This document shows positions 15,129 through 43,808 of a DNA stretch of 64,000 nucleotides, in pieces; position 1 is the first letter of the stretch, and the number at the start of each line of letters is the position of its first letter. The notes below the pieces were generated by a model. The model was not told where the DNA came from. It was given only the letters and a program-made list of their open reading frames with translations, and ran no database searches. Made by a program: the position numbers and the translations under genes. The stretch is from a virus: positions 1-64,000 of IMG/VR virus record IMGVR_UViG_3300044701_003269; one strand, given 5' to 3'.

Positions 15129-15203
15129 GGGACTGTCGCCTATGGGTTAAGGCCCACTGCTTATAACGGTGTGAACTGAGTTCAAGTCTCAGCAGTCCTA
15201 CCA
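15129..15203 (+). tRNA. tRNA-Ile(TAT) with encoded CCA
   Basis: GGGACTG/CAGTCCT acceptor; CACTG-CTTATAA-CGGTG. Confidence 0.88.
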
Positions 15204-25619: not shown

Positions 25620-25712
25620 CAAAAAACCAAGTCGCCTTTAAACTAAATAAGTACTTAAGAATTCTGTTGTAATTCTTAATCTTTGTCCTATAGTACAAAC
25701 AAACAACAATCT

Positions 25713-27182
25713 ATGAAATTCTTTCAACAACTGATGCTTGCACCTGTTGCTCTGGGAATGGTTGCTCCTGCTGCGATGGCCGCAGAACTTAATATGAATG
25801 GAGTCAACCAATATGCTTCCCAAGAACAGGTAACAAGCGTTACCCAATTTTCTGATGTGCAACCAACCGATTGGGCATATCAGGCACTCAGCAACCTAGT
25901 AGAGCGTTATGGTTGCGTTGCTGGTTATCCCAACGGCACTTTCCGTGGTGGTCGTGCAATGACCCGCTATGAGGCAGCAGCACTTCTCAATGCTTGCCTT
26001 GACCGTGTAACTGAAGTTACTGATGAACTCAAGCGTCTTGCTAATGAGTTTGCTGCAGAACTCGCAGTTCTCAAGGGTCGTGTAGATGGTCTGGAAGCAC
26101 AAGTTACTACACTTGAAGCTCAACAGTTTTCCACCACTACCAAACTCCGTGGTGAAGCAAACTTTGTTCTTGGTGGTGTTGATGATTACCAAACCAAAGG
26201 TGGTGACATCACCCGCACCGCATTCAACTATGATCTGCGTCTGAACCTGGATACTTCATTCACTGGTAAGGATCTGCTTCGCACTCGTCTGCGTTCTGCT
26301 AACTTCAGCAGCAATCCTTTCGGTTCCAGTTCTTCAATCTTCAAGCTTGATAAGGCAGACGGCACTGTAAGCGAAGTTGGTAACAATGTAGTTATCGACC
26401 GTCTGTTCTATCAGTTCCCTGCTTTCAATAACAAAGCAACCATCACTGCTGGTGCTCTGGTTCGTAACACTGAGATGGCTTGGATTCCTTCGGCATATGA
26501 CTCCAAGATTCTTGACTTCTTCCAAGTAGCAGGTGCTCCTGGTGTTTATAACAAGGCAACTGGTTCTGGTTTCGGTATCCAGTATGGCAAGAAAGGTCTT
26601 GTTGCTGGAATCAACTATGTAGCACAAAATGGTGCTGATAGTTCCACTGGTGAGTTTGACCGTTCTGGTGCTCTGAATACTCTGGCACAAGTCGGTTATC
26701 GTGGCACTAACTGGGGTGCTGCTTTCGGTTATCGTTATGGAACTGAAGGCACCCGTGTTCGCACTTACAATGGCCTTGATGGTGCTTCAGGTGCTCTGGT
26801 TCCTGGTCAAACCTCTAACGGTTATGCTATCAACGCATACTGGGAACCCACCCAATCTGGTTGGGCACCTTCTATCTCCGCAGGTTATGGTTGGAACACT
26901 GTAAGTAGCACCCAAAGTGATGCTACAAACAGTCAGTCCTGGTTTGCTGGTCTCACCTGGGATGATGTGTTTGTTGATGGTAACTCTGCTGGTGTTGCTA
27001 TCGGTCAAGCACCTACTGGAGAAAATCTTGAGAAGTCCACTCTTCTTGAAATCTTCTACAAGTATCAAGTGTCTGATAACATCAGTGTCACTCCTGCTAT
27101 CATCTATGGTAGCGACAATCAGCGTCTTGCTGGCAACTCCTCCAACTGGGGTGGCGTGATTCAAACTACCTTCAAGTTCTGA
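25713..27182 (+). CDS. Cyanobacterial SLH-domain outer-membrane porin (Som/OprB type)
   Basis: Signal peptide, QFSDVQPTDWAYQAL SLH, FSTTTKLRGE, terminal TTFKF. Confidence 0.93.
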   Translation: MKFFQQLMLAPVALGMVAPAAMAAELNMNGVNQYASQEQVTSVTQFSDVQPTDWAYQALSNLVERYGCVAGYPNGTFRGGRAMTRYEAAALLNACLDRVTEVTDELKRLANEFAAELAVLKGRVDGLEAQVTTLEAQQFSTTTKLRGEANFVLGGVDDYQTKGGDITRTAFNYDLRLNLDTSFTGKDLLRTRLRSANFSSNPFGSSSSIFKLDKADGTVSEVGNNVVIDRLFYQFPAFNNKATITAGALVRNTEMAWIPSAYDSKILDFFQVAGAPGVYNKATGSGFGIQYGKKGLVAGINYVAQNGADSSTGEFDRSGALNTLAQVGYRGTNWGAAFGYRYGTEGTRVRTYNGLDGASGALVPGQTSNGYAINAYWEPTQSGWAPSISAGYGWNTVSSTQSDATNSQSWFAGLTWDDVFVDGNSAGVAIGQAPTGENLEKSTLLEIFYKYQVSDNISVTPAIIYGSDNQRLAGNSSNWGGVIQTTFKF

Positions 27183-27204
27183 TAATCCACTCATAACTTG
27201 AGTT

Positions 27205-27232
27205 AAAGCACTCCATTACGGGGTGCTTTTTT
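27205..27232 (+). terminator. Rho-independent terminator
   Basis: AAAGCACTCC/GGGGTGCTTT plus T run. Confidence 0.7.
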
Positions 27233-27236
27233 ATTG

Positions 27237-27275
27237 GTTAACCAAAACCTTAACCAAACCTTAGTGGACTTTAAG
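27237..27275 (+). promoter_or_regulatory. Cyanobacterial Pho box (SphR/PhoB site)
   Basis: TTAACCA at 27238 and 27250, TTAG at 27261, TTAA at 27271 (~11 bp period), directly upstream of pstS. Confidence 0.75.
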
Positions 27276-27328
27276 ATTGTCTTTTGATATTATTGATCAT
27301 GAAGTCAATTCACTTCTAACAACTTTTT

Positions 27329-28291
27329 ATGAAACTCAAACAAATTTTTGCTGTTGGTCTAGTCGCTGCTCCTACTGTTGCTCTTGCTGGGCCTACTATT
27401 AATGGTGCGGGTGCTACTTTCCCCGCTCCAATTTATCAACGATGGTTCCAAGATTATGCACGAACTACTGGGAATAGGGTTAATTATCAGTCCGTTGGTT
27501 CTGGTGCTGGTGTTCGTCAATTTATTGCGGGCACAGTTAACTTCGGAGCAACCGACGAACCAATCAGTTCAGCAGACGCCACCAAAGTAAAACGTGGTGT
27601 CGTTCAAATTCCTATGGTTGGTGGAACGATTGCTGTTGCCTATAACAAACCTGGATGCTCCCTGAAACTGACCCAGAAGCAAACTGTAGATATTTTTGCT
27701 GGACGCATCAAGGATTGGAAAGCACTTGGATGTGCTGCTGGCCCTATTCGTACCGTATATCGTGCAGATGGTTCTGGAACCACTTATGCGTTCACTAATT
27801 CTCTAGATGCTTTTGGTGGATGGAAAGCAGGTGTAGGTAAGTCTGTAAAGTGGCCTACTGGTATTGGTGCTAAAGGTAATGAGGGTGTGTCTGGTAGCAT
27901 TCGCCAAACCCCAGGTTCTATTGGTTATGTTAATACTGGATTTGTAAAAGCAAACAAACTCCAAGCAGCAGCAATTCAAAATAAGGCAGGTAAGTTTGTT
28001 CTTCCTACCGCTGCTTCTGGTTCTGCTGCTCTGAATGGTATCAAACTGGACGCAAACCTTGCTGGCGAAAATCCGAATCCTGCTGGAGCAACCGCATACC
28101 CAATTTCAACTTTGACTTGGGTTCTTGCTTACAAGACTGGTAATGGTTCTAACACCACTGCTATTCGCAACGCACTCAACTATGCTCTGAGTTCTAAGGC
28201 ACAATCACTTGCTGATGACCTTGGATATGTTCCTCTGAGTGGTTCTATCCTTAACCGAGCACGGATTGCCGTAAACCGAATCGGTCAGTAA
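27329..28291 (+). CDS. pstS: Phosphate ABC transporter substrate-binding protein
   Basis: GAGATFP, YQSVGSGAG, RADGSGTT, KGNEGV, YPIS. Confidence 0.95.
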   Translation: MKLKQIFAVGLVAAPTVALAGPTINGAGATFPAPIYQRWFQDYARTTGNRVNYQSVGSGAGVRQFIAGTVNFGATDEPISSADATKVKRGVVQIPMVGGTIAVAYNKPGCSLKLTQKQTVDIFAGRIKDWKALGCAAGPIRTVYRADGSGTTYAFTNSLDAFGGWKAGVGKSVKWPTGIGAKGNEGVSGSIRQTPGSIGYVNTGFVKANKLQAAAIQNKAGKFVLPTAASGSAALNGIKLDANLAGENPNPAGATAYPISTLTWVLAYKTGNGSNTTAIRNALNYALSSKAQSLADDLGYVPLSGSILNRARIAVNRIGQ

Positions 28292-28307
28292 ATCTAAACA
28301 AAACCTT

Positions 28308-28363
28308 AAGGGATGCTTGACATCCCTTTCTTTTTGCTATATAATTGTGTAACAATTCGTAAT
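28308..28363 (+). promoter_or_regulatory. Terminator with embedded sigma70 promoter, plus HLR1-like repeat upstream of hli
   Basis: AAGGGATG/CATCCCTT; TTGACA(28317)-N17-TATAAT; GTAAC-N-GTAAT. Confidence 0.6.
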
Positions 28364-28372
28364 AAAGCGAAA

Positions 28373-28582
28373 ATGACTGTAACTAAAAACGAGTTCGGGC
28401 AAATGAATATGTTTGCCAAAGAACCTTCGATGTATATGACCAAGGAAGACCTTGAGCGTTATGGCATCGAACCCTATGCTGAGAAAGCGGAGAAAATGAA
28501 TGGACGCTGGGCTATGGTCGGTATTGTTGCTGGGGCTATTTCTTACGCTCTCACTGGCAACCTCTTCTTTGGAGTAGTTTGA
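28373..28582 (+). CDS. hli: High-light inducible protein
   Basis: NMFAKEP and AEKMNGRWAMVG. Confidence 0.92.
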   Translation: MTVTKNEFGQMNMFAKEPSMYMTKEDLERYGIEPYAEKAEKMNGRWAMVGIVAGAISYALTGNLFFGVV

Positions 28583-28591
28583 GACTTGACA

Positions 28592-28678
28592 ATGACTTCA
28601 CTTTTGTTTACAATGACATCCGTTGCCTTCTTCGTTTTGTTGGCAGCATCCGTTGAAAAAATTTGTGAGACTTACTAA
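28592..28678 (+). CDS. 28 aa hydrophobic peptide
   Basis: [28 protein letters not shown], coupled to petF by TAATG. Confidence 0.45.
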
Positions 28679-28971
28679 TGGCCACTTTTAACGTTACTCT
28701 TCAAACCCCTGACGGCACTGAAACTACTATCGAATGTGCTGACGACCAATACATTCTTGAAGCTGCTGAAGAAGCAGGTATTGACCTTCCTTATTCTTGT
28801 AAGGCAGGTGCTTGCTCTTCGTGTGCTGGTAAAGTGATTTCTGGCGAGATTGACAATGAAGAGCAATCTTTCCTTGATGACGACCAGATGGCAGATGGAT
28901 TTGCACTTCTTTGTGTTGCTTATCCAAAGTCTGATTGTGTCATTCTCACCGAACAGGAAGAGAACCTGTGA
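28678..28971 (+). CDS. petF: Plant-type [2Fe-2S] ferredoxin
   Basis: [13 protein letters not shown]...LLCVAYP. Confidence 0.96.
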
Positions 28972-29243
28972 GTGCTGATATGCTAGGGCAATTTGCAATT
29001 GCCCTTGAGAAACTTGGATGGGATGCTTATGATGAACTCTCTGTAGAGATTGGAGGAGTTGCAGTAACAGGAACTGCTACTAGTCCAAATGCAAATCCAA
29101 AATGGGCAAAACCATTTGGAACCATCACTTATCAAAACGATGCCTTTATCGTTATTAAGAATAAGTCAAGGAACCCTGTAGTTCCTTCTACCCCAAATCC
29201 TGAACTCAAACAAAAACACCCTTATCAAGGAGAAAAACAATGA
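28968..29243 (+). CDS. Hypothetical protein
   Basis: GTG overlapping the petF stop; operon context. Confidence 0.6.
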
Positions 29244-29347
29244 ACGAAAAAGCTGAACGTATTAATGGTTGGGCAGCAATGCTTGGTATTGTTGCCGCAA
29301 TGGGCAGTTATGCTGTCACTGGTCAAATCATTCCTGGTATTTGGTGA
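29240..29347 (+). CDS. hli: High-light inducible protein, 35 aa
   Basis: [16 protein letters not shown]...TGQIIPGIW; AAGGAG RBS; missed by the ORF track. Confidence 0.92.
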   Translation: MNEKAERINGWAAMLGIVAAMGSYAVTGQIIPGIW

Positions 29348-29348
29348 T

Positions 29349-29492
29349 ATGAAGTGTAAAGTGCAGTTATACGTAGCAGGTAAGGTTTTCTACGAAACAG
29401 TAGAGGCAAGAGATTATCAAGATGCAAGGGAAACTGCACTTGCACGGAATCCAAAGGCCAAAGTTGTTGGAGTTACTGCTGTTTTTGATTAA
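29349..29492 (+). CDS. Small conserved cyanophage protein
   Basis: MKCKVQLYVAGKVF...ALARNPKAKVV. Confidence 0.65.
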   Translation: MKCKVQLYVAGKVFYETVEARDYQDARETALARNPKAKVVGVTAVFD

Positions 29493-29497
29493 TAACT

Positions 29498-30070
29498 ATG
29501 TTTAATATTTTTAAAAAAGAAAAAACGACTAGGGAGGTTCCTATGCGTAGAGAAGGATATCAAATTCCTCAAGTAGAATTTGTATTCCGTGAAAACGGAG
29601 AATTTGTAAATCGCACATCTTCAGAACTTTTCGATGGGAAGCGTGTTGTCATTTTTAGTTTGCCTGGTGCTTTCACTCCTACTTGCAGTGCCTATCAGCT
29701 ACCTGGATTCGAAGAGAAATACGAAGACTTTGTTGGTAGTGGCATCGACGCTATTTACTGCATCTCTGTTAATGATGCGTTTGTGATGAATGCTTGGGCT
29801 CAAGACCAGAACATCAAGAATGTCCAACTCATTCCTGATGGTAATGCATACTTCACCCGTTCGATGGGACAACTAGTAATGAAGTCCAATCTTGGTTTCG
29901 GTGAGCGTTCTTGGCGTTATGCTGCTGTGGTTAATAACGGACAGATTGAGAAACTATTCGAAGAGCCTGGTAAGCGTGATAATGCCAAGGAAGACCCTTA
30001 TGGTGAGACCAGTCCAGAAGCAGTTCTGGAATATGTGAAATCTACTGTTCATGAACCAGTAGCAGTTTGA
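29498..30070 (+). CDS. Type II (Prx5-like) peroxiredoxin
   Basis: FSLPGAFTPTCS, SVNDAFVM, PDGN, RSWRYA. Confidence 0.93.
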   Translation: MFNIFKKEKTTREVPMRREGYQIPQVEFVFRENGEFVNRTSSELFDGKRVVIFSLPGAFTPTCSAYQLPGFEEKYEDFVGSGIDAIYCISVNDAFVMNAWAQDQNIKNVQLIPDGNAYFTRSMGQLVMKSNLGFGERSWRYAAVVNNGQIEKLFEEPGKRDNAKEDPYGETSPEAVLEYVKSTVHEPVAV

Positions 30071-30129
30071 GAGAAGGAGGGTTTATCCCTCCTTTTTTAA
30101 TAAATATAATGCAGGGTTTGGATACTATA

Positions 30130-30828
30130 ATGCTCATAGATCTTCATAACTTCTTTAAATTTTACGACGATAAAAATCCAAAGCACGTTGCTGCGGTAGA
30201 ACAATTTGAAAAGGATTTGCTTCTGAAAGCCCAAGAGTTGATGCAGGATGATGCCAACTGGGTGAGAATTTTTAGAACCAAAGAAGATAAACCCCAAGCA
30301 AGTATTTTGCCCGTTCCTTTTTATCCACAAACAGATAATTATAGAGATGCAAATAGAACTTGCAACTCTTCTTCTTGTGCAATGTGCCTTGAGTATTTCA
30401 AACCTGGTACACTAAAAGGAGCTAAAGGCGACGACGCCTATGTACAAAAAGTTTTCCAAATCGGTGACACAACTGATCACTTGGTTCAGACCAAAGTTCT
30501 TGCGTCATACGGTATCAAATCCAGTTTTTCCTACAGCCTTTCTTTTGCTGATCTTGATAGAGAGCTTGCCGCTGGTAGACCTGTTGTTATTGGTATTCTT
30601 CATCGCGGTTCTCTATCTAACCCCACAGGAGGGCACATGGTAGTTGTAATTGGCAAAACCCCTTCAGGTGACTATGTTGTTAATGACCCATACGGCTCAT
30701 TGAATGATGGATACACTGGGTCAGTTAATAATGGTAAAGGTGCTGTATACAAGCGTTCTGATTTATCCCGTAGATGGTGTCCAAAAGGAAATGATGGTTG
30801 GGGAAGAATCTTTGATGTAAAAAAGTAG
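30130..30828 (+). CDS. C39-like cysteine peptidase (cell-wall hydrolase); 0-frame part of a frameshift gene
   Basis: VPFYPQ, CNSSSCAM, GGHMVVVIG, VNDPYG; ATAAATA late promoter at 30100. Confidence 0.8.
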   Translation: MLIDLHNFFKFYDDKNPKHVAAVEQFEKDLLLKAQELMQDDANWVRIFRTKEDKPQASILPVPFYPQTDNYRDANRTCNSSSCAMCLEYFKPGTLKGAKGDDAYVQKVFQIGDTTDHLVQTKVLASYGIKSSFSYSLSFADLDRELAAGRPVVIGILHRGSLSNPTGGHMVVVIGKTPSGDYVVNDPYGSLNDGYTGSVNNGKGAVYKRSDLSRRWCPKGNDGWGRIFDVKK

Positions 30829-30891
30829 AGTCAACACCACAATCCAAAATCCCTCAGTGTGGTGTTGACTTGATTAAAGAATTTGAGGGAT
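30819..30891 (+). other. Putative -1 programmed ribosomal frameshift signal (A_AAA_AAG plus H-type pseudoknot)
   Basis: Heptamer 30819-30825; 13 bp stem 30829-30841/30858-30870; loop ATCCCTCA pairs with TGAGGGAT 30884-30891. Confidence 0.8.
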
Positions 30892-31307
30892 GCCATTTAA
30901 ATGCTTATCCCGATCCATTAACTGGTGGACTTCCTATTACTATTGGTTGGGGTTCTACAAAAGATTTCAATGGACAATACTTCAAACTTGGTAGAAAAAT
31001 AACTCAAGAGTATGCAGATAGACTATTAACATTTGACCTTGAGAATAGATTTCTTCCATCACTTCAAAGAATTCCTTATTGGGGAGAAATGTCAGATGGA
31101 CAAAGAGGCGCTCTGCTCAGCTTCGCTTATAATCTTGGTGCCGGTTTTTACGGTGGTTCTAACTTTAATACTATTACTAAATGCCTAAAAAATAAAGAAT
31201 GGTCTAAAGTCCCTGATGCTTTATATCTTTACCGCAATCCTGGAACTAACGTAGAGAAAGGACTTGCTCGCAGAAGAGTTGCAGAAGGTAAACTTTGGTC
31301 TTCATAA
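30825..31307 (+). CDS. GH24 phage lysozyme domain (-1 frame; ORF track starts it at TTG 30870)
   Basis: GVDLIKEFEG...AYPD...TIGWG, ALLSFAYNLG, GLARRRVAE. Confidence 0.9.
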   Translation, partial: VESTPQSKIPQCGVDLIKEFEGCHLNAYPDPLTGGLPITIGWGSTKDFNGQYFKLGRKITQEYADRLLTFDLENRFLPSLQRIPYWGEMSDGQRGALLSFAYNLGAGFYGGSNFNTITKCLKNKEWSKVPDALYLYRNPGTNVEKGLARRRVAEGKLWSS

Positions 31308-31351: not shown

Positions 31352-32131
31352 ATGCCACACGAGACCTGTAATAATACAGATCATGTGGTCTTACTTCAGA
31401 AGCTGGACAAGATGATACTTGTCGCAGAAGCGTCAGAGTATGAATTAGGATTTCGTAGACGACTTCAATCATTTCGCAATCTTTTGGTAATCCATGCTGC
31501 GAAGACAAAAGACCTAGGCGAAGCAACAAAAGAAATAATAACGAATCATAGAAAAAGAATACTTGCTTGGGGCATACCTATTACATTAATGTTTGGAGCA
31601 CCCTATTTTATTCTCACTAAAACTGATTGGTTGATGCAGAGACCAATTATTTGTAAAGAGTTCCCTACTAAAAATAAATTACATCCAGGCAAACTTGAAG
31701 TTTGTGTGAATGGTGTAACCCATCCATATAGACCTTCTAATGGTGATGCTGAATTAGACATTACTTTTATGAGAACTCACTGGGAAAGAGTTCAAGCAGA
31801 TGTGACTTTTTGGATTGCCGACGAAATTGCTAACAAGACCGTTGATTATTCTGGTGAATATAATATTCAAAGAATTAGAACTTATAACTCTAGAGGTATT
31901 CTGGTAAGTGATAGGGAGAATGAAACAAGTTCTTGGATTGAACCAGTAGTCCCAGATGATATGAGATTGCCTATGTGGAACTGGGTATATGAGAATAGAG
32001 ATTTATTTCATGTAGAAAGAAAACCACTCGATGAAACAGTGCAGAAGTTTTTTAGTAGTTTAGGTGCTCTTATTGCTACTGCTGGTTCCGCAGGTATCAC
32101 AATCTATAGATTTATCAAGGCTGGACTTTGA
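31352..32131 (+). CDS. Two-TM membrane protein next to the lysis genes
   Basis: Hydrophobic segments near aa 70-88 and at the C-terminus; ATAAATA at 31321. Confidence 0.6.
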   Translation: MPHETCNNTDHVVLLQKLDKMILVAEASEYELGFRRRLQSFRNLLVIHAAKTKDLGEATKEIITNHRKRILAWGIPITLMFGAPYFILTKTDWLMQRPIICKEFPTKNKLHPGKLEVCVNGVTHPYRPSNGDAELDITFMRTHWERVQADVTFWIADEIANKTVDYSGEYNIQRIRTYNSRGILVSDRENETSSWIEPVVPDDMRLPMWNWVYENRDLFHVERKPLDETVQKFFSSLGALIATAGSAGITIYRFIKAGL

Positions 32132-32302
32132 TTTTTTATTGGCAGCATCAACTCCAAAGGTTGCTAGAGCAGAAGTAAATACGGATGCTATAAAAGTAGC
32201 ATCCATTTTTTTTAAGTAGTCCATATAGTTCAAAGTTAGTAAAGTTGCAGACCATCCAAGAATTGCCAATCTAATTACTGTAAATGAACTTATGTTTTTC
32301 AT
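32060..32302 (-). CDS. Small two-TM membrane protein
   Basis: LAILGWSATLLTL and FIASVFTSALATFGV. Confidence 0.6.
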   Translation of the reverse strand: MKNISSFTVIRLAILGWSATLLTLNYMDYLKKMDATFIASVFTSALATFGVDAANKKSKSSLDKSIDCDTCGTSSSNKST

Positions 32303-33361: not shown

Positions 33362-34441
33362 ATGACTGCTACAATTTCACAACAACGACAATTAAATACT
33401 TGGGAACAGTTCTGCAACTGGGTTACTTCAACCGATAATCGTCTTTATGTCGGTTGGTTTGGAGTCCTGATGATTCCCTGCCTGCTTGCTGCAACAACTT
33501 GCTTCATCATCGCATTCATCGGTGCTCCCCCTGTGGACATTGATGGTATCCGCGAACCTGTTGCTGGTTCCTTAATGTACGGAAACAACATCATCTCCGG
33601 TGCTGTTGTTCCTTCGTCCAATGCAATTGGACTGCACTTCTACCCCATCTGGGAAGCTGCTTCCCTAGATGAGTGGCTCTACAACGGTGGTCCTTTCCAA
33701 CTCGTTGTATTCCACTTCCTCATTGGCATCTATGCCTATATGGGTCGTGAGTGGGAACTTTCATACCGCCTAGGTATGCGTCCTTGGATCTGTGTTGCTT
33801 ACAGCGCCCCTGTTGCTGCTGCATCCGCAGTATTCCTGGTCTATCCTTTCGGTCAAGGTTCTTTCTCTGATGCTATGCCTCTTGGTATCTCTGGCACCTT
33901 TAACTATATGCTTGTGTTCCAGGCAGAACATAACATCCTGATGCACCCCTTCCACATGCTTGGAGTTGCTGGTGTCTTCGGTGGTTCTCTGTTCAGTGCT
34001 ATGCACGGTTCTCTGGTTACTTCCTCACTAGTTCGTGAAACCACTGAGAATGAGTCACAGAACTATGGTTACAAGTTCGGTCAAGAAGAAGAGACCTACA
34101 ACATCGTTGCTGCTCACGGTTATTTCGGACGCCTTATTTTCCAATATGCTTCCTTTAATAACTCACGTTCACTTCACTTCTTCCTTGCTGCTTGGCCTGT
34201 AGTTGGCATCTGGTTCACGGCGCTTGGTGTTAGCACCATGGCATTTAACCTGAATGGATTCAACTTCAACCAGTCTATCCTTGACAGTCAGGGTCGTGTG
34301 CTCAACACCTGGGCAGATGTTCTGAACCGTGCTGGTCTTGGAATGGAAGTGATGCATGAGCGTAACGCTCACAACTTCCCTCTCGATCTCGCTGCTGCTG
34401 AGAACACTCCTGTTGCTCTCACTGCACCTGCAATCGGTTGA
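33362..34441 (+). CDS. psbA: Photosystem II D1 protein (Glu130 form, no intron)
   Basis: Full D1 sequence, [20 protein letters not shown]. Confidence 0.99.
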
Positions 34442-34462
34442 GTTAGTTAAAACTTAATCACT

Positions 34463-34488
34463 GGGGGTCTTCGGACCCCTTTCTTTTT
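34463..34488 (+). terminator. Terminator between psbA and psbD
   Basis: GGGGTC-TTCG-GACCCC plus T-rich tail. Confidence 0.75.
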
Positions 34489-34500
34489 CGGAGGTTATAA

Positions 34501-35562
34501 ATGGTATCTTCTGCTTTACAACAACCAATTCAACAAAGGGGGTGGTTCGATGTTCTCGATGATTGGCTTAAGCGTGATAGGTTTGTTTTTGTCGGTTGGT
34601 CTGGCCTTCTCCTTTTCCCTACAGCTTATCTCGCTCTTGGCGGTTGGCTTACAGGAACCACCTTTGCTACCAGTTGGTACACCCACGGCATTGCGTCTTC
34701 ATATTTGGAGGGGTGTAACTTTCTTACTGCTGCTGTCAGCACTCCTGCTGATGCTCTCGGACATAGCCTCTTACTCCTATGGGGTCCTGAAGCTCAGGGA
34801 GATTTCGTCCGCTGGGTCCAACTTGGGGGACTCTGGACTTTTGTGGCACTACACGGCGCTTTCAGCTTAATCGGATTTATGCTTCGGCAGTTCGAGATTG
34901 CTCGACTGGTTGGCATCCGACCATATAATGCAATCGCATTCTCTGGTCCTATCGCTGTATTTGTCAGCGTGTTTCTGATGTACCCTCTGGGTCAATCATC
35001 TTGGTTCTTCGCTCCCTCTTTTGGTGTGGCAGCAATCTTCAGGTTCCTGCTGTTCCTTCAAGGGTTCCACAACTGGACACTCAACCCCTTCCATATGATG
35101 GGAGTGGCAGGTATCCTAGGTGGTGCTCTGCTCTGTGCTATTCACGGTGCTACTGTGGAGAATACTCTCTATGAAGATAGCGACCAAGCAAACACTTTCA
35201 AAGCTTTTGAACCCACGCAAGAGGAGGAAACTTATTCGATGGTTACTGCTAACCGTTTCTGGTCACAGATTTTCGGTATTGCTTTTAGTAACAAGCGTTG
35301 GTTGCATTTCTTTATGCTCTTTGTTCCCGTCATGGGTTTATGGACCTCTAGTATCGGTATCATTGGACTCGCTCTTAATCTTCGTGCTTACGACTTTGTA
35401 TCTCAAGAAGTTCGTGCGGCGGAGGATCCGGAGTTCGAGACGTTCTACACAAAGAACATTCTATTAAATGAAGGCCTTCGTGCTTGGATGGCTCCAGTAG
35501 ACCAGCCTCATGAGAATTTTGTGTTCCCAGAGGAAGTTCTACCGCGAGGTAATGCACTTTAA
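34501..35562 (+). CDS. psbD: Photosystem II D2 protein
   Basis: [16 protein letters not shown]...EVLPRGNAL. Confidence 0.99.
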
Positions 35563-42375: not shown

Positions 42376-43131
42376 ATGCCCGCAAAAAGAAATTCCCCTA
42401 AGTCTCCAGTACCTTTTGGAATGAGTAATAAGCAAATGAAAAGGAAAAAGCCAATCAACACTGATTTAATGAGGAAGATTGAGCCTCTTACTGACAATCA
42501 AGAGGAACTCTTCCGTTGTTACAAACTAGACCAAAACCTTGTAGCCTATGGATGTGCTGGTACTGGTAAGACTTTTATCACTCTTTATAATGCTTTAAGA
42601 GATGTACTTGACGAGAGAACCCCTTACGAAAAAATTTATATTGTACGTTCCCTTGTGGCAACTAGGGAGATTGGTTTTCTTCCGGGCGATCATGAGGATA
42701 AATCCTCTCTTTATCAGATTCCATATAAGAATATGGTAAAGTATATGTTTGAGATGCCATCAGAAACAGATTTTGAAATGCTTTACGGTAATCTCAAAAC
42801 ACAAGGAACTATTAGTTTCTGGAGTACTTCTTTTATTCGTGGAACTACCCTTGACAATGCAATCATCATTGTAGATGAATTTCAAAACTTGAATTATCAC
42901 GAACTTGATAGTATAATTACTCGTGTAGGTGAGAATAGTAAGATTATGTTCTGTGGTGATGCCACTCAATCTGACCTTATTAAGACGAATGAAAAGAATG
43001 GAATTGTTGATTTCATGAAAGTTCTTCGTATCATGCCTTCAGTTGATATTGTTGAATTTGGAGTAGAAGATATTGTTCGCTCTGGATTGGTGAAAGAATA
43101 CATCTTGGCAAAAATGGAAATCGGAGTATGA
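42376..43131 (+). CDS. phoH: PhoH-family ATPase
   Basis: GCAGTGKT, IGFLPG, RGTT, DEFQN, GDATQSD. Confidence 0.95.
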   Translation: MPAKRNSPKSPVPFGMSNKQMKRKKPINTDLMRKIEPLTDNQEELFRCYKLDQNLVAYGCAGTGKTFITLYNALRDVLDERTPYEKIYIVRSLVATREIGFLPGDHEDKSSLYQIPYKNMVKYMFEMPSETDFEMLYGNLKTQGTISFWSTSFIRGTTLDNAIIIVDEFQNLNYHELDSIITRVGENSKIMFCGDATQSDLIKTNEKNGIVDFMKVLRIMPSVDIVEFGVEDIVRSGLVKEYILAKMEIGV

Positions 43132-43808
43132 GTTTTATTCATCATAATTATTTGGGTGATATTGAATTAGATTGCAAAACAACAGAAAGCATCCGTCTCT
43201 ATAATCTTCCTAATGGAGACTGGGTGCCTTCTATTACATCTGTCACTTCTTTTTATAATCGACAAGTATTTGTTGATTGGAGGAAGCGTGTAGGTATTGA
43301 AGAAGCAAATCGTATTACAAAAAAGGCAACAGCAAGGGGAACGGATTTTCACCAAGTATGTCAGGACTATCTTGAAAACAAGGAGTTGAATTGGGATGAT
43401 TATCAACTCTTGACAAAACATATGTTTTTTCATGCAAAGCCATATTTGGATAAGATAAATAATATTCACGCAATCGAGAGAACTCTTTACTCAGAATATC
43501 TTGGACTTGCGGGAAGAGTAGACTGTATCGCAGAGTATGAAGGAGAACTTGCAGTTATTGACTTCAAGACTTCTGAAAAAATTAAACCAGAAAAGTGGAT
43601 TGAAAATTATTTCGTGCAAGAAACTTTTTATGCAGCTGCATATTATGAACTCACTGGACAAGTAGTTAAAAAACTTATTACACTGATGGTTACTCCTGGA
43701 GGAGAAGTCCAAGTATTTGACAAAAGAAACAAAGGGGATTATATTAAACTATTAGTTCGTTATATTAAAGAATTTGTACATCACAATACTGGGTCAGATG
43801 GAGAATGA
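43128..43808 (+). CDS. PD-(D/E)XK exonuclease
   Basis: PSITSV, RGTDFH, AGRVDC, IDFKTS. Confidence 0.85.
   Translation: MSFIHHNYLGDIELDCKTTESIRLYNLPNGDWVPSITSVTSFYNRQVFVDWRKRVGIEEANRITKKATARGTDFHQVCQDYLENKELNWDDYQLLTKHMFFHAKPYLDKINNIHAIERTLYSEYLGLAGRVDCIAEYEGELAVIDFKTSEKIKPEKWIENYFVQETFYAAAYYELTGQVVKKLITLMVTPGGEVQVFDKRNKGDYIKLLVRYIKEFVHHNTGSDGE

Follow-up and report, generated by a model that had tools for sequence, protein, structure and literature searches.

Organization of the Locus

The DNA analyzed here (the window) comes from a freshwater cyanobacterial virus and comprises the first 64,000 nucleotides of IMGVR_UViG_3300044701_003269, a 174-kb virus record that is 83% complete and carries psbA, psbD, hli, pstS, and T4-like genes. 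A C39-like peptidase gene is overlapped by a GH24 lysozyme in the −1 frame, and the locus contains the following elements.

30070–30098, plus strand: probable terminator (presumed function), a 12-bp hairpin followed by a T-run, −17.7 kcal/mol, after the peroxiredoxin gene
30099–30106, plus strand: T4-like late-promoter motif AATAAATA, about 24 nt upstream of the ATG
30130–30828, plus strand: 0-frame ORF of 232 aa (the short product), consisting of an N-terminal domain and a C39-like cysteine peptidase (ORF, Pfam, predicted structure)
30133–30285, plus strand: N-terminal domain (N-domain), 51 aa, helical, predicted homodimer, found with phage peptidoglycan hydrolases (profile search, structure prediction)
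30800–30804, plus strand: GGGGA run, candidate internal Shine-Dalgarno stimulator that also occurs outside frameshift loci (sequence, homologue comparison)
30813–30815, plus strand: −1 frame stop TGA, which restricts a shift to 30816–30825
30819–30825, plus strand: slippery heptamer A_AAA_AAG (sequence, homologue conservation)
30825–31307, plus strand: GH24 lysozyme in the −1 frame, residues 233–392 of the fusion (Pfam), with Glu253, Asp262, and Thr271 assigned by T4-lysozyme-type spacing
30826–30828, plus strand: 0-frame stop TAG; the ORF ends GTA AAA AAG TAG
30829–30870, plus strand: stem 1 (30829–30841 with 30858–30870), perfect 13 bp, the family-wide 3′ stimulator (folding, covariation)
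30849–30891, plus strand: stem 2 of an H-type pseudoknot (30849–30856 with 30884–30891), its 3′ strand overlying the lysozyme catalytic Glu codon; found in about one third of loci
30870–30872, plus strand: TTG, the ORF-finder start, a Leu codon; TTG in only 12 of 97 loci

An earlier note on this DNA had proposed that a pseudoknot-stimulated −1 frameshift at this site yields a short peptidase and a long peptidase-muramidase fusion. Its coordinates were confirmed: A_AAA_AAG lies directly before the TAG, all 13 bp of the stem are paired without a mismatch, the loop 8-mer is fully complementary to the downstream strand, and the −1 frame has a stop at 30813 and neither ATG nor GTG before the TTG. 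The computed products, 232 aa (25.9 kDa) and 392 aa (43.8 kDa), agree with the sizes it had given, and Pfam assigned the two enzymes to Peptidase_C39_2 and Phage_lysozyme. The label “endolysin” and the “set ratio” of the products are interpretations.

The −1 frame is open from the TGA on to 31307, and close relatives differ from the window in the lysozyme frame mostly by synonymous changes. The GH24, C39, and N-domain profiles each have one match in the whole 174-kb record, all at this locus. In 56 of 95 frameshift loci, ATAAATA is found no more than 80 nt upstream; the consensus behind AATAAATA is the late-promoter consensus of S-PM2 and T4. In-frame A_AAA_AAG is mildly avoided genome-wide, with three occurrences (slip site included) versus 8.2 expected. 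Another lies at 43319–43325 in the long ORF 43056–43808, without a strong stem downstream. A third, outside the window (G000:C1:120955), lies in a homing-endonuclease-like ORF and has a −1 stop one codon on and a 6-bp hairpin 12 nt further, possibly by chance.

The lysozyme is followed directly by a 259-aa ORF (31352–32131, plus strand) with one predicted membrane segment at about residues 70–88. This ORF is present in 14 related loci, gave no Pfam, PHROG, or useful Atlas match, and is a possible lysis accessory. On the minus strand, 32060–32302 encodes an 80-aa hydrophobic DUF6450/phrog_721 protein, which 50 related loci also have close to the lysozyme; calling it holin-like is a guess, and no holin was identified next to the lysozyme gene. 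The regions 25683–30070 and 33362–35562 form a host-derived cluster (porin-like protein, pstS, hli, ferredoxin, peroxiredoxin) with uninterrupted psbA and psbD, as identified from translations. At 15129–15203, inside a cluster of ten phage tRNAs, there is a tRNA-Ile whose UAU anticodon is uncommon among bacteria.

Conservation of the Slippery Heptamer

Locus searches and annotated phages gave 191 distinct junctions from related T4-like cyanophages; these counts are of related sequences, mostly metagenomic contigs, rather than of independent events. The lysozyme overlaps the upstream stop in the −1 frame in 133 of them. All 106 overlaps that lack an ATGA or GTGA start at the stop carry an in-frame slippery heptamer (A_AAA_AAG in 93, G_GGA_AAG in nine, C_CCA_AAG in two, and U_UUU_UUU in two), located 7, 10, or 13 nt before the stop. 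A start (ATG or GTG) overlaps the stop in the other 27 relatives, 15 with the heptamer as well and 12 without it, and all 12 of the latter have an ATGA start. Without exception the heptamer keeps to the ribosomal phase and has a stem 2–8 nt 3′ of it; in 81 of 97 loci, the −1 frame stop lies 13 or 16 nt 5′ of the 0-frame stop. The codon preceding Lys-Lys varies (GCA in 58, GTA in 38, ACA in seven, ATA in three, and GAA in two), its third base is always A, and AAG makes up only one third of Lys codons. A_AAA_AAG, G_GGA_AAG, and C_CCA_AAG are exactly the heptamers singled out as highly prone to shifting in E. coli (PMC5009743). Two cultured phages belong to the set: S-PM2 has the same junction as the window, without a start codon, and S-CAM7 has U_UUU_UUU and a hairpin.

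Among C39 genes without an adjacent GH24 domain, four of 97 end in the heptamer. These four encode a GH73 glucosaminidase or a GH19-like domain in the −1 frame, and every one has a stem of its own. The signal is thus missing from all true stand-alone C39 genes (0 of 93), and the cassette works with three different catalytic partners. The nine G_GGA_AAG loci (L040, L053, L054, L056, L058, L060, L068, L218, and L248) form a clade in which the short product ends in Cys-Pro-His-Cys, half a zinc site that a dimer could complete.

The earlier note had also suggested looking for an indel in the A-run, and the contigs assembled from three DNA runs contain none. At a depth of about 590, the main X1 contig matches the window exactly across the A-run, and the contigs of relatives bridge it without gaps; such contigs drop rare variants, and X1 and X2 may be the source sample. 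The RNA run X19 had no coverage of the junction. Three contigs on separate tree tips (L133, L153, and L418) have a seventh A, which makes an in-frame fusion while A_AAA_AAA and the stem are retained; they may be real variants or assembly errors.

RNA Elements Downstream of the Heptamer

The region folds with a z-score of −3.0 in the window, and 0 of 200 shuffles were as stable. Across the 97 start-less C39 loci, a helix 2–8 nt past the heptamer (stem 1) beats synonymous-codon shuffles in 91%, with a mean energy of −19.1 kcal/mol versus −8.9 kcal/mol for shuffled sequences; in loci with their own start, the downstream helix does so in only 17–20%. At least three unrelated sequence families of stem 1 were found, whose arms pair within a family (−14 to −16) but not across families (−5 to −9). 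Double changes occur in six of 12 pairs in the window's family, a number that 0 of 500 shuffles reach, and slid registers are only about 42% paired, although kinship inflates covariation tests of this kind. The heptamer-to-stem spacer has a median of 5 nt in the family and is 2–3 nt in the window, where the first 2–4 bp of stem 1 would therefore be melted by the ribosome.

The pseudoknot of the earlier note was upheld in part. The pairing of stem 2 is exact in the window (8–9 bp), and 90.8% of it is paired across 34 relatives. Its substitutions are one-sided G-U changes only, with no double compensatory change, and a central pair is broken in seven of the 34; the 3′ strand can hardly vary, since it encodes the active-site Phe-Glu-Gly. 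Stem 2 beats shuffles in 34% of the 97 loci, reaches 11–14 bp in L181, L185, L377, and L424, and does not occur in the other stem families. As a family-wide feature the pseudoknot was thus rejected, being found in about one third of loci (those of the window's type), and the hairpin is the conserved stimulator. In the window genome itself the pseudoknot probably forms. An optional internal Shine-Dalgarno element lies 10–14 nt upstream at dnaX/IS3-type sites. The GGGGA run is present, ending 14 nt before the heptamer, and may be such a stimulator, but it is not specific: it is not enriched at frameshift loci, being equally common in stand-alone C39 genes and absent in the G_GGA_AAG clade, and its presence is forced by conserved Trp-Gly codons.

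Reversed Polarity and In-Frame Fusions

The same signal occurs with the polarity of the two products reversed. In-frame N-domain-lysozyme genes carry A_AAA_AAG just after the N-domain in 45 of 45 cases, and in 42 of these the −1 frame reaches a stop one codon on. Three distinct in-frame C39-lysozyme junctions, including that of ACG-2014f, have both the heptamer and the stop. A −1 stop thus lies one codon past the heptamer in 45 of 48 genes, where chance would give 12% per codon. The stop may be TAG, TAA, or TGA, five different residues occupy the first position above it, and the two residues that follow Lys-Lys vary as well (TS, GN, SS, SD, TN, PD, and HS), indicating that the stop rather than the peptide is under conservation. 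In the N-domain genes of this type a short GC hairpin is usual at 6 nt; it exceeds synonymous shuffles of the Ala-rich linker in only 11%. ACG-2014f (405 aa, annotated as one ORF) probably makes two forms as well, judging from its junction.

In the nine genes whose shift occurs at a downstream G_GGA_AAG, the homologous Arg-Gly-Lys-Lys site no longer carries the heptamer, which points to one slip site per gene. Seven marine in-frame fusions have no heptamer at all and, together with the 12 plain-ATGA loci, suggest that two forms are not always needed. The phrog_3617 profile (405 positions) covers the C39 and GH24 parts in order. In a lysozyme tree, which is unrooted and has few columns, the junction types are interspersed without giving an order of events. 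S-CAM7, the marine fusions, and ACG-2014f group together (100/99), as do N-domain genes of both polarities and one C_CCA_AAG locus (100/99). Other arrangements were also observed, including lysozyme-N-domain-C39 in frame in S-CREM1 (L162, 2009–3190), N-domain-C39-GH19-like in frame in S-N03 (L169, 1789–3057), and a lysozyme apparently divided between two ORFs in S-CRM01 (L168, 1321–1878).

Protein Domains and a Predicted N-Domain Dimer

The GH24 domain matches PF00959 with an E-value of 8.6e-21 over model positions 1–125 of 125, and its Glu/Asp/Thr motif residues are invariant. The C39-like peptidase matches PF13529 and is predicted to adopt a papain fold with an intact triad; Cys78, His169, and Asp186, as well as Gln67, are invariant in the C39 alignment (A3). 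Cell-wall activity of this C39 family is putative, suggested by its fusion partners only.

The N-domain gave no Pfam match and no Atlas feature match. A profile search found it in 151 protein clusters; of 20 longer ones scanned, 17 contain only GH24, GH73, C39-like, or M15 Pfam domains and three have no match, a co-occurrence with hydrolase domains in viral proteins that is an association only. Its predicted fold has a pLDDT of 90, and its best match to a solved structure (Z 3.2) shows neither a known nor a new fold. Prediction of a homodimer of the isolated domain scored 0.86, a mark reached by 20 of 30 solved pairs and one of 23 single chains in a benchmark, and the best of three controls scored 0.02. 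The dimer runs have at least 98% of contacts in common and a pLDDT of at least 91, and the invariant Phe7, Phe8, His18, and Trp43 sit in the predicted interface. Residues 1–232 are common to the short and long products of the window; the short form of the N-domain genes is little more than the 51-residue domain.

Alternative Explanations

The heptamer could be incidental, and the lysozyme a separate gene translated from the TTG at 30870 or by re-initiation after the TAG. Relatives with an ATG or GTG overlapping the stop (27, of which 15 bear the heptamer) fit such a scheme, as do Met codons located 8–9 residues before the catalytic motif in the G_GGA_AAG clade. It is nevertheless very unlikely: ahead of the catalytic motif, ATG is missing from 92 of the 97 loci and 53 lack GTG and TTG as well, and a TTG product would begin five residues before the catalytic Glu, where the shortest natural start lies 11 before it. 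The stops of the reversed-polarity genes and the loss of the heptamer in stand-alone genes would also be left unexplained. Slippage of RNA polymerase on the A-run, adding a base as in Thermus dnaX, would produce the fusion by ordinary translation, and the longer T run in S-CAM7 and the seventh A in three contigs could be read in this way. In 91 of 97 loci, however, the run has just six As, fewer than the 9 cited for slippage; G_GGA_AAG and C_CCA_AAG hold only three As, and the heptamer keeps to the ribosomal phase throughout, with a stem just downstream. This mechanism is just as improbable. An assembly error or a recently broken in-frame fusion (a pseudogene) has models in phrog_3617 and the 405-aa ORF of ACG-2014f, but the odds of either are negligible: the same offset recurs in more than 100 distinct junctions, the cultured phages S-PM2 and S-CAM7 show it too, the contigs lack an indel, and changes in the lysozyme frame are mostly synonymous.

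The alternative that deserves most weight accepts the frameshift but assigns it to dosage, keeping the muramidase low, or to location, the products being virion-associated entry hydrolases, rather than to co-assembly. The precedent of lambda gpG/gpGT and the lack of an identified holin adjoining the gene favor it, and the late-promoter motif suits either role. The reversed-polarity genes, however, yield the lysozyme-bearing form by default, the bare N-domain that many genes make as their short form fits a subunit better than a throttle, and the gene lies among psbA, psbD, hli, and pstS, outside any structural module. A role in dosage or location is thus quite possible, at somewhat below even odds.

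The heptamer, the frame offset, the missing start, the covarying stem, and both polarities are established at the level of sequence, and the alignment of homologues asked for in the earlier note strongly supported its central claim of a programmed −1 frameshift, with the heptamer, reading-frame offset, and stem covariation all conserved in related cyanophages. A hydrolase made in two forms by frameshifting is the best explanation of the locus, with a probability of about 0.9, and on the same comparative grounds the −1 shift very probably takes place in vivo. Both products are likely to be cell-wall hydrolases for lysis rather than virion enzymes.

Relation to Known Systems

The closest mechanistic parallel is E. 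coli dnaX (PMC5009743), where A_AAA_AAG and a 3′ stem-loop also lead to short and long products (gamma and tau) with a common N-terminus. Its stop lies one codon past the shift, as in the reversed-polarity relatives, and both polarities are known for dnaX too. The window locus differs in encoding a phage cell-wall hydrolase whose long form is the shifted form, and in having a probable pseudoknot; the cyanophage family differs in its several heptamers, its three catalytic partners, and the lack of support for a Shine-Dalgarno stimulator. In lambda gpG/gpGT (PMC5009743, PMC10885494), a phage gene likewise ends in a −1 shift that yields a C-terminally extended minor form, with a set ratio in lambda, but those proteins are chaperones, and the products here are enzymes of a T4-like cyanophage without homology to them.

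The two-polypeptide endolysins of Gram-positive phages, such as Lys170, CTP1L, and LysP7951, likewise derive a full-length and a partial polypeptide with a common small domain from one lysin gene, and can multimerize in a fixed ratio as 1:3, 2:2, or 1:5 complexes (PMC9430671). In the Lys170/CTP1L type, an in-frame internal start gives a C-terminal piece, whereas the window has a change of frame and an N-terminal common domain, so that both forms can be made only by a frameshift or an early stop and not by an internal start. Multimerization is known for that type and only predicted for the window hydrolase, and frameshifting is not mentioned in PMC9430671. The in-frame fusion phrog_3617 of ACG-2014f has the same domains in the same order and is homologous over both halves; it differs in being annotated as one ORF, with A_AAA_AAG and a −1 stop one codon later. 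A frameshift-dependent lysis protein was historically claimed for MS2 (Kastelein 1982, as cited in PMC5009743), although that protein is not a muralytic enzyme, and a later paper, according to the citation there, ascribes its expression to termination-coupled initiation.

The earlier note had placed phage frameshifts mainly among tail chaperones and capsid or tail proteins; tail assembly chaperones make up 2397 of 2476 annotated cases in the PRFect training set. PRFect also names “lysins” among genes known to shift, citing Shearman 1994 (lactococcal lysin, two overlapping genes). A full-text literature search covering mainly openly available papers returned no report of a frameshifted endolysin from a cyanophage or any other source. 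The lactococcal lysin reportedly involves a second start, not a frameshift. Two papers on S-PM2 (PMC10976474, PMC2984593) do not treat its lysin. The frameshift mechanism itself is textbook; it is this class of hydrolase genes for which that search found no report.

Proposed Mechanism and Implications

The gene would be transcribed late and read as a 232-aa protein composed of the dimerizing N-domain and the C39 peptidase. The downstream stem, probably a pseudoknot in the window genome, would pause a fraction of ribosomes, which could then slip by −1 on A_AAA_AAG through tandem re-pairing of tRNA-Lys, pass the TAG, and add the GH24 lysozyme to give the 392-aa form. Short and long forms would co-assemble via the N-domain, and the shift rate would set the number of muramidase domains per complex; this last step, which draws on the modeled dimer, has close to an even chance of being right. 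More tentatively, the family as a whole may represent a −1 frameshift cassette that is portable, has been rebuilt on several occasions with differing heptamers, stems, and polarities, and sets the subunit make-up of a dimeric hydrolase on an undescribed N-terminal dimerization domain.

A host whose tRNA-Lys is of the UUU type only provides the condition that makes AAG shifty. A tRNA-Lys pattern matched 35 Synechococcus-family genomes, of which 31 showed the UUU type only and four also CUU, a count to be read with the 26 of 61 genomes missed by the pattern and with divergent CUU tRNAs that may escape it. The 83%-complete phage record contains 11 tRNAs, none of them for Lys. Since shiftiness depends on the tRNA-Lys content of the host, the ratio of the products, and hence lysis, could differ between hosts. 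In L454 and L455, a tRNA-Lys(CUU), apparently a local duplicate, lies beside tRNA-Lys(UUU) and could damp shifting at A_AAA_AAG.

These findings have consequences for annotation. S-PM2 p154, at 72 aa, and the 90-aa lysin of S-CAM7 are annotated as C-terminal fragments without the catalytic Glu, and only the −1 shift would complete them. Hidden short products are predicted from the single-ORF genes of ACG-2014f, DSL-LC02, and DSL-LC03. The locus would add a class of cell-wall hydrolases to the phage genes that use frameshifting, in a major group of aquatic phages, and if the proposed assembly is correct, it would be a Gram-negative, frameshift-based counterpart of the two-polypeptide endolysins. 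With a two-form locus present in a cultured model, cyanomyovirus lysis, a poorly known step, would come within reach of direct tests.
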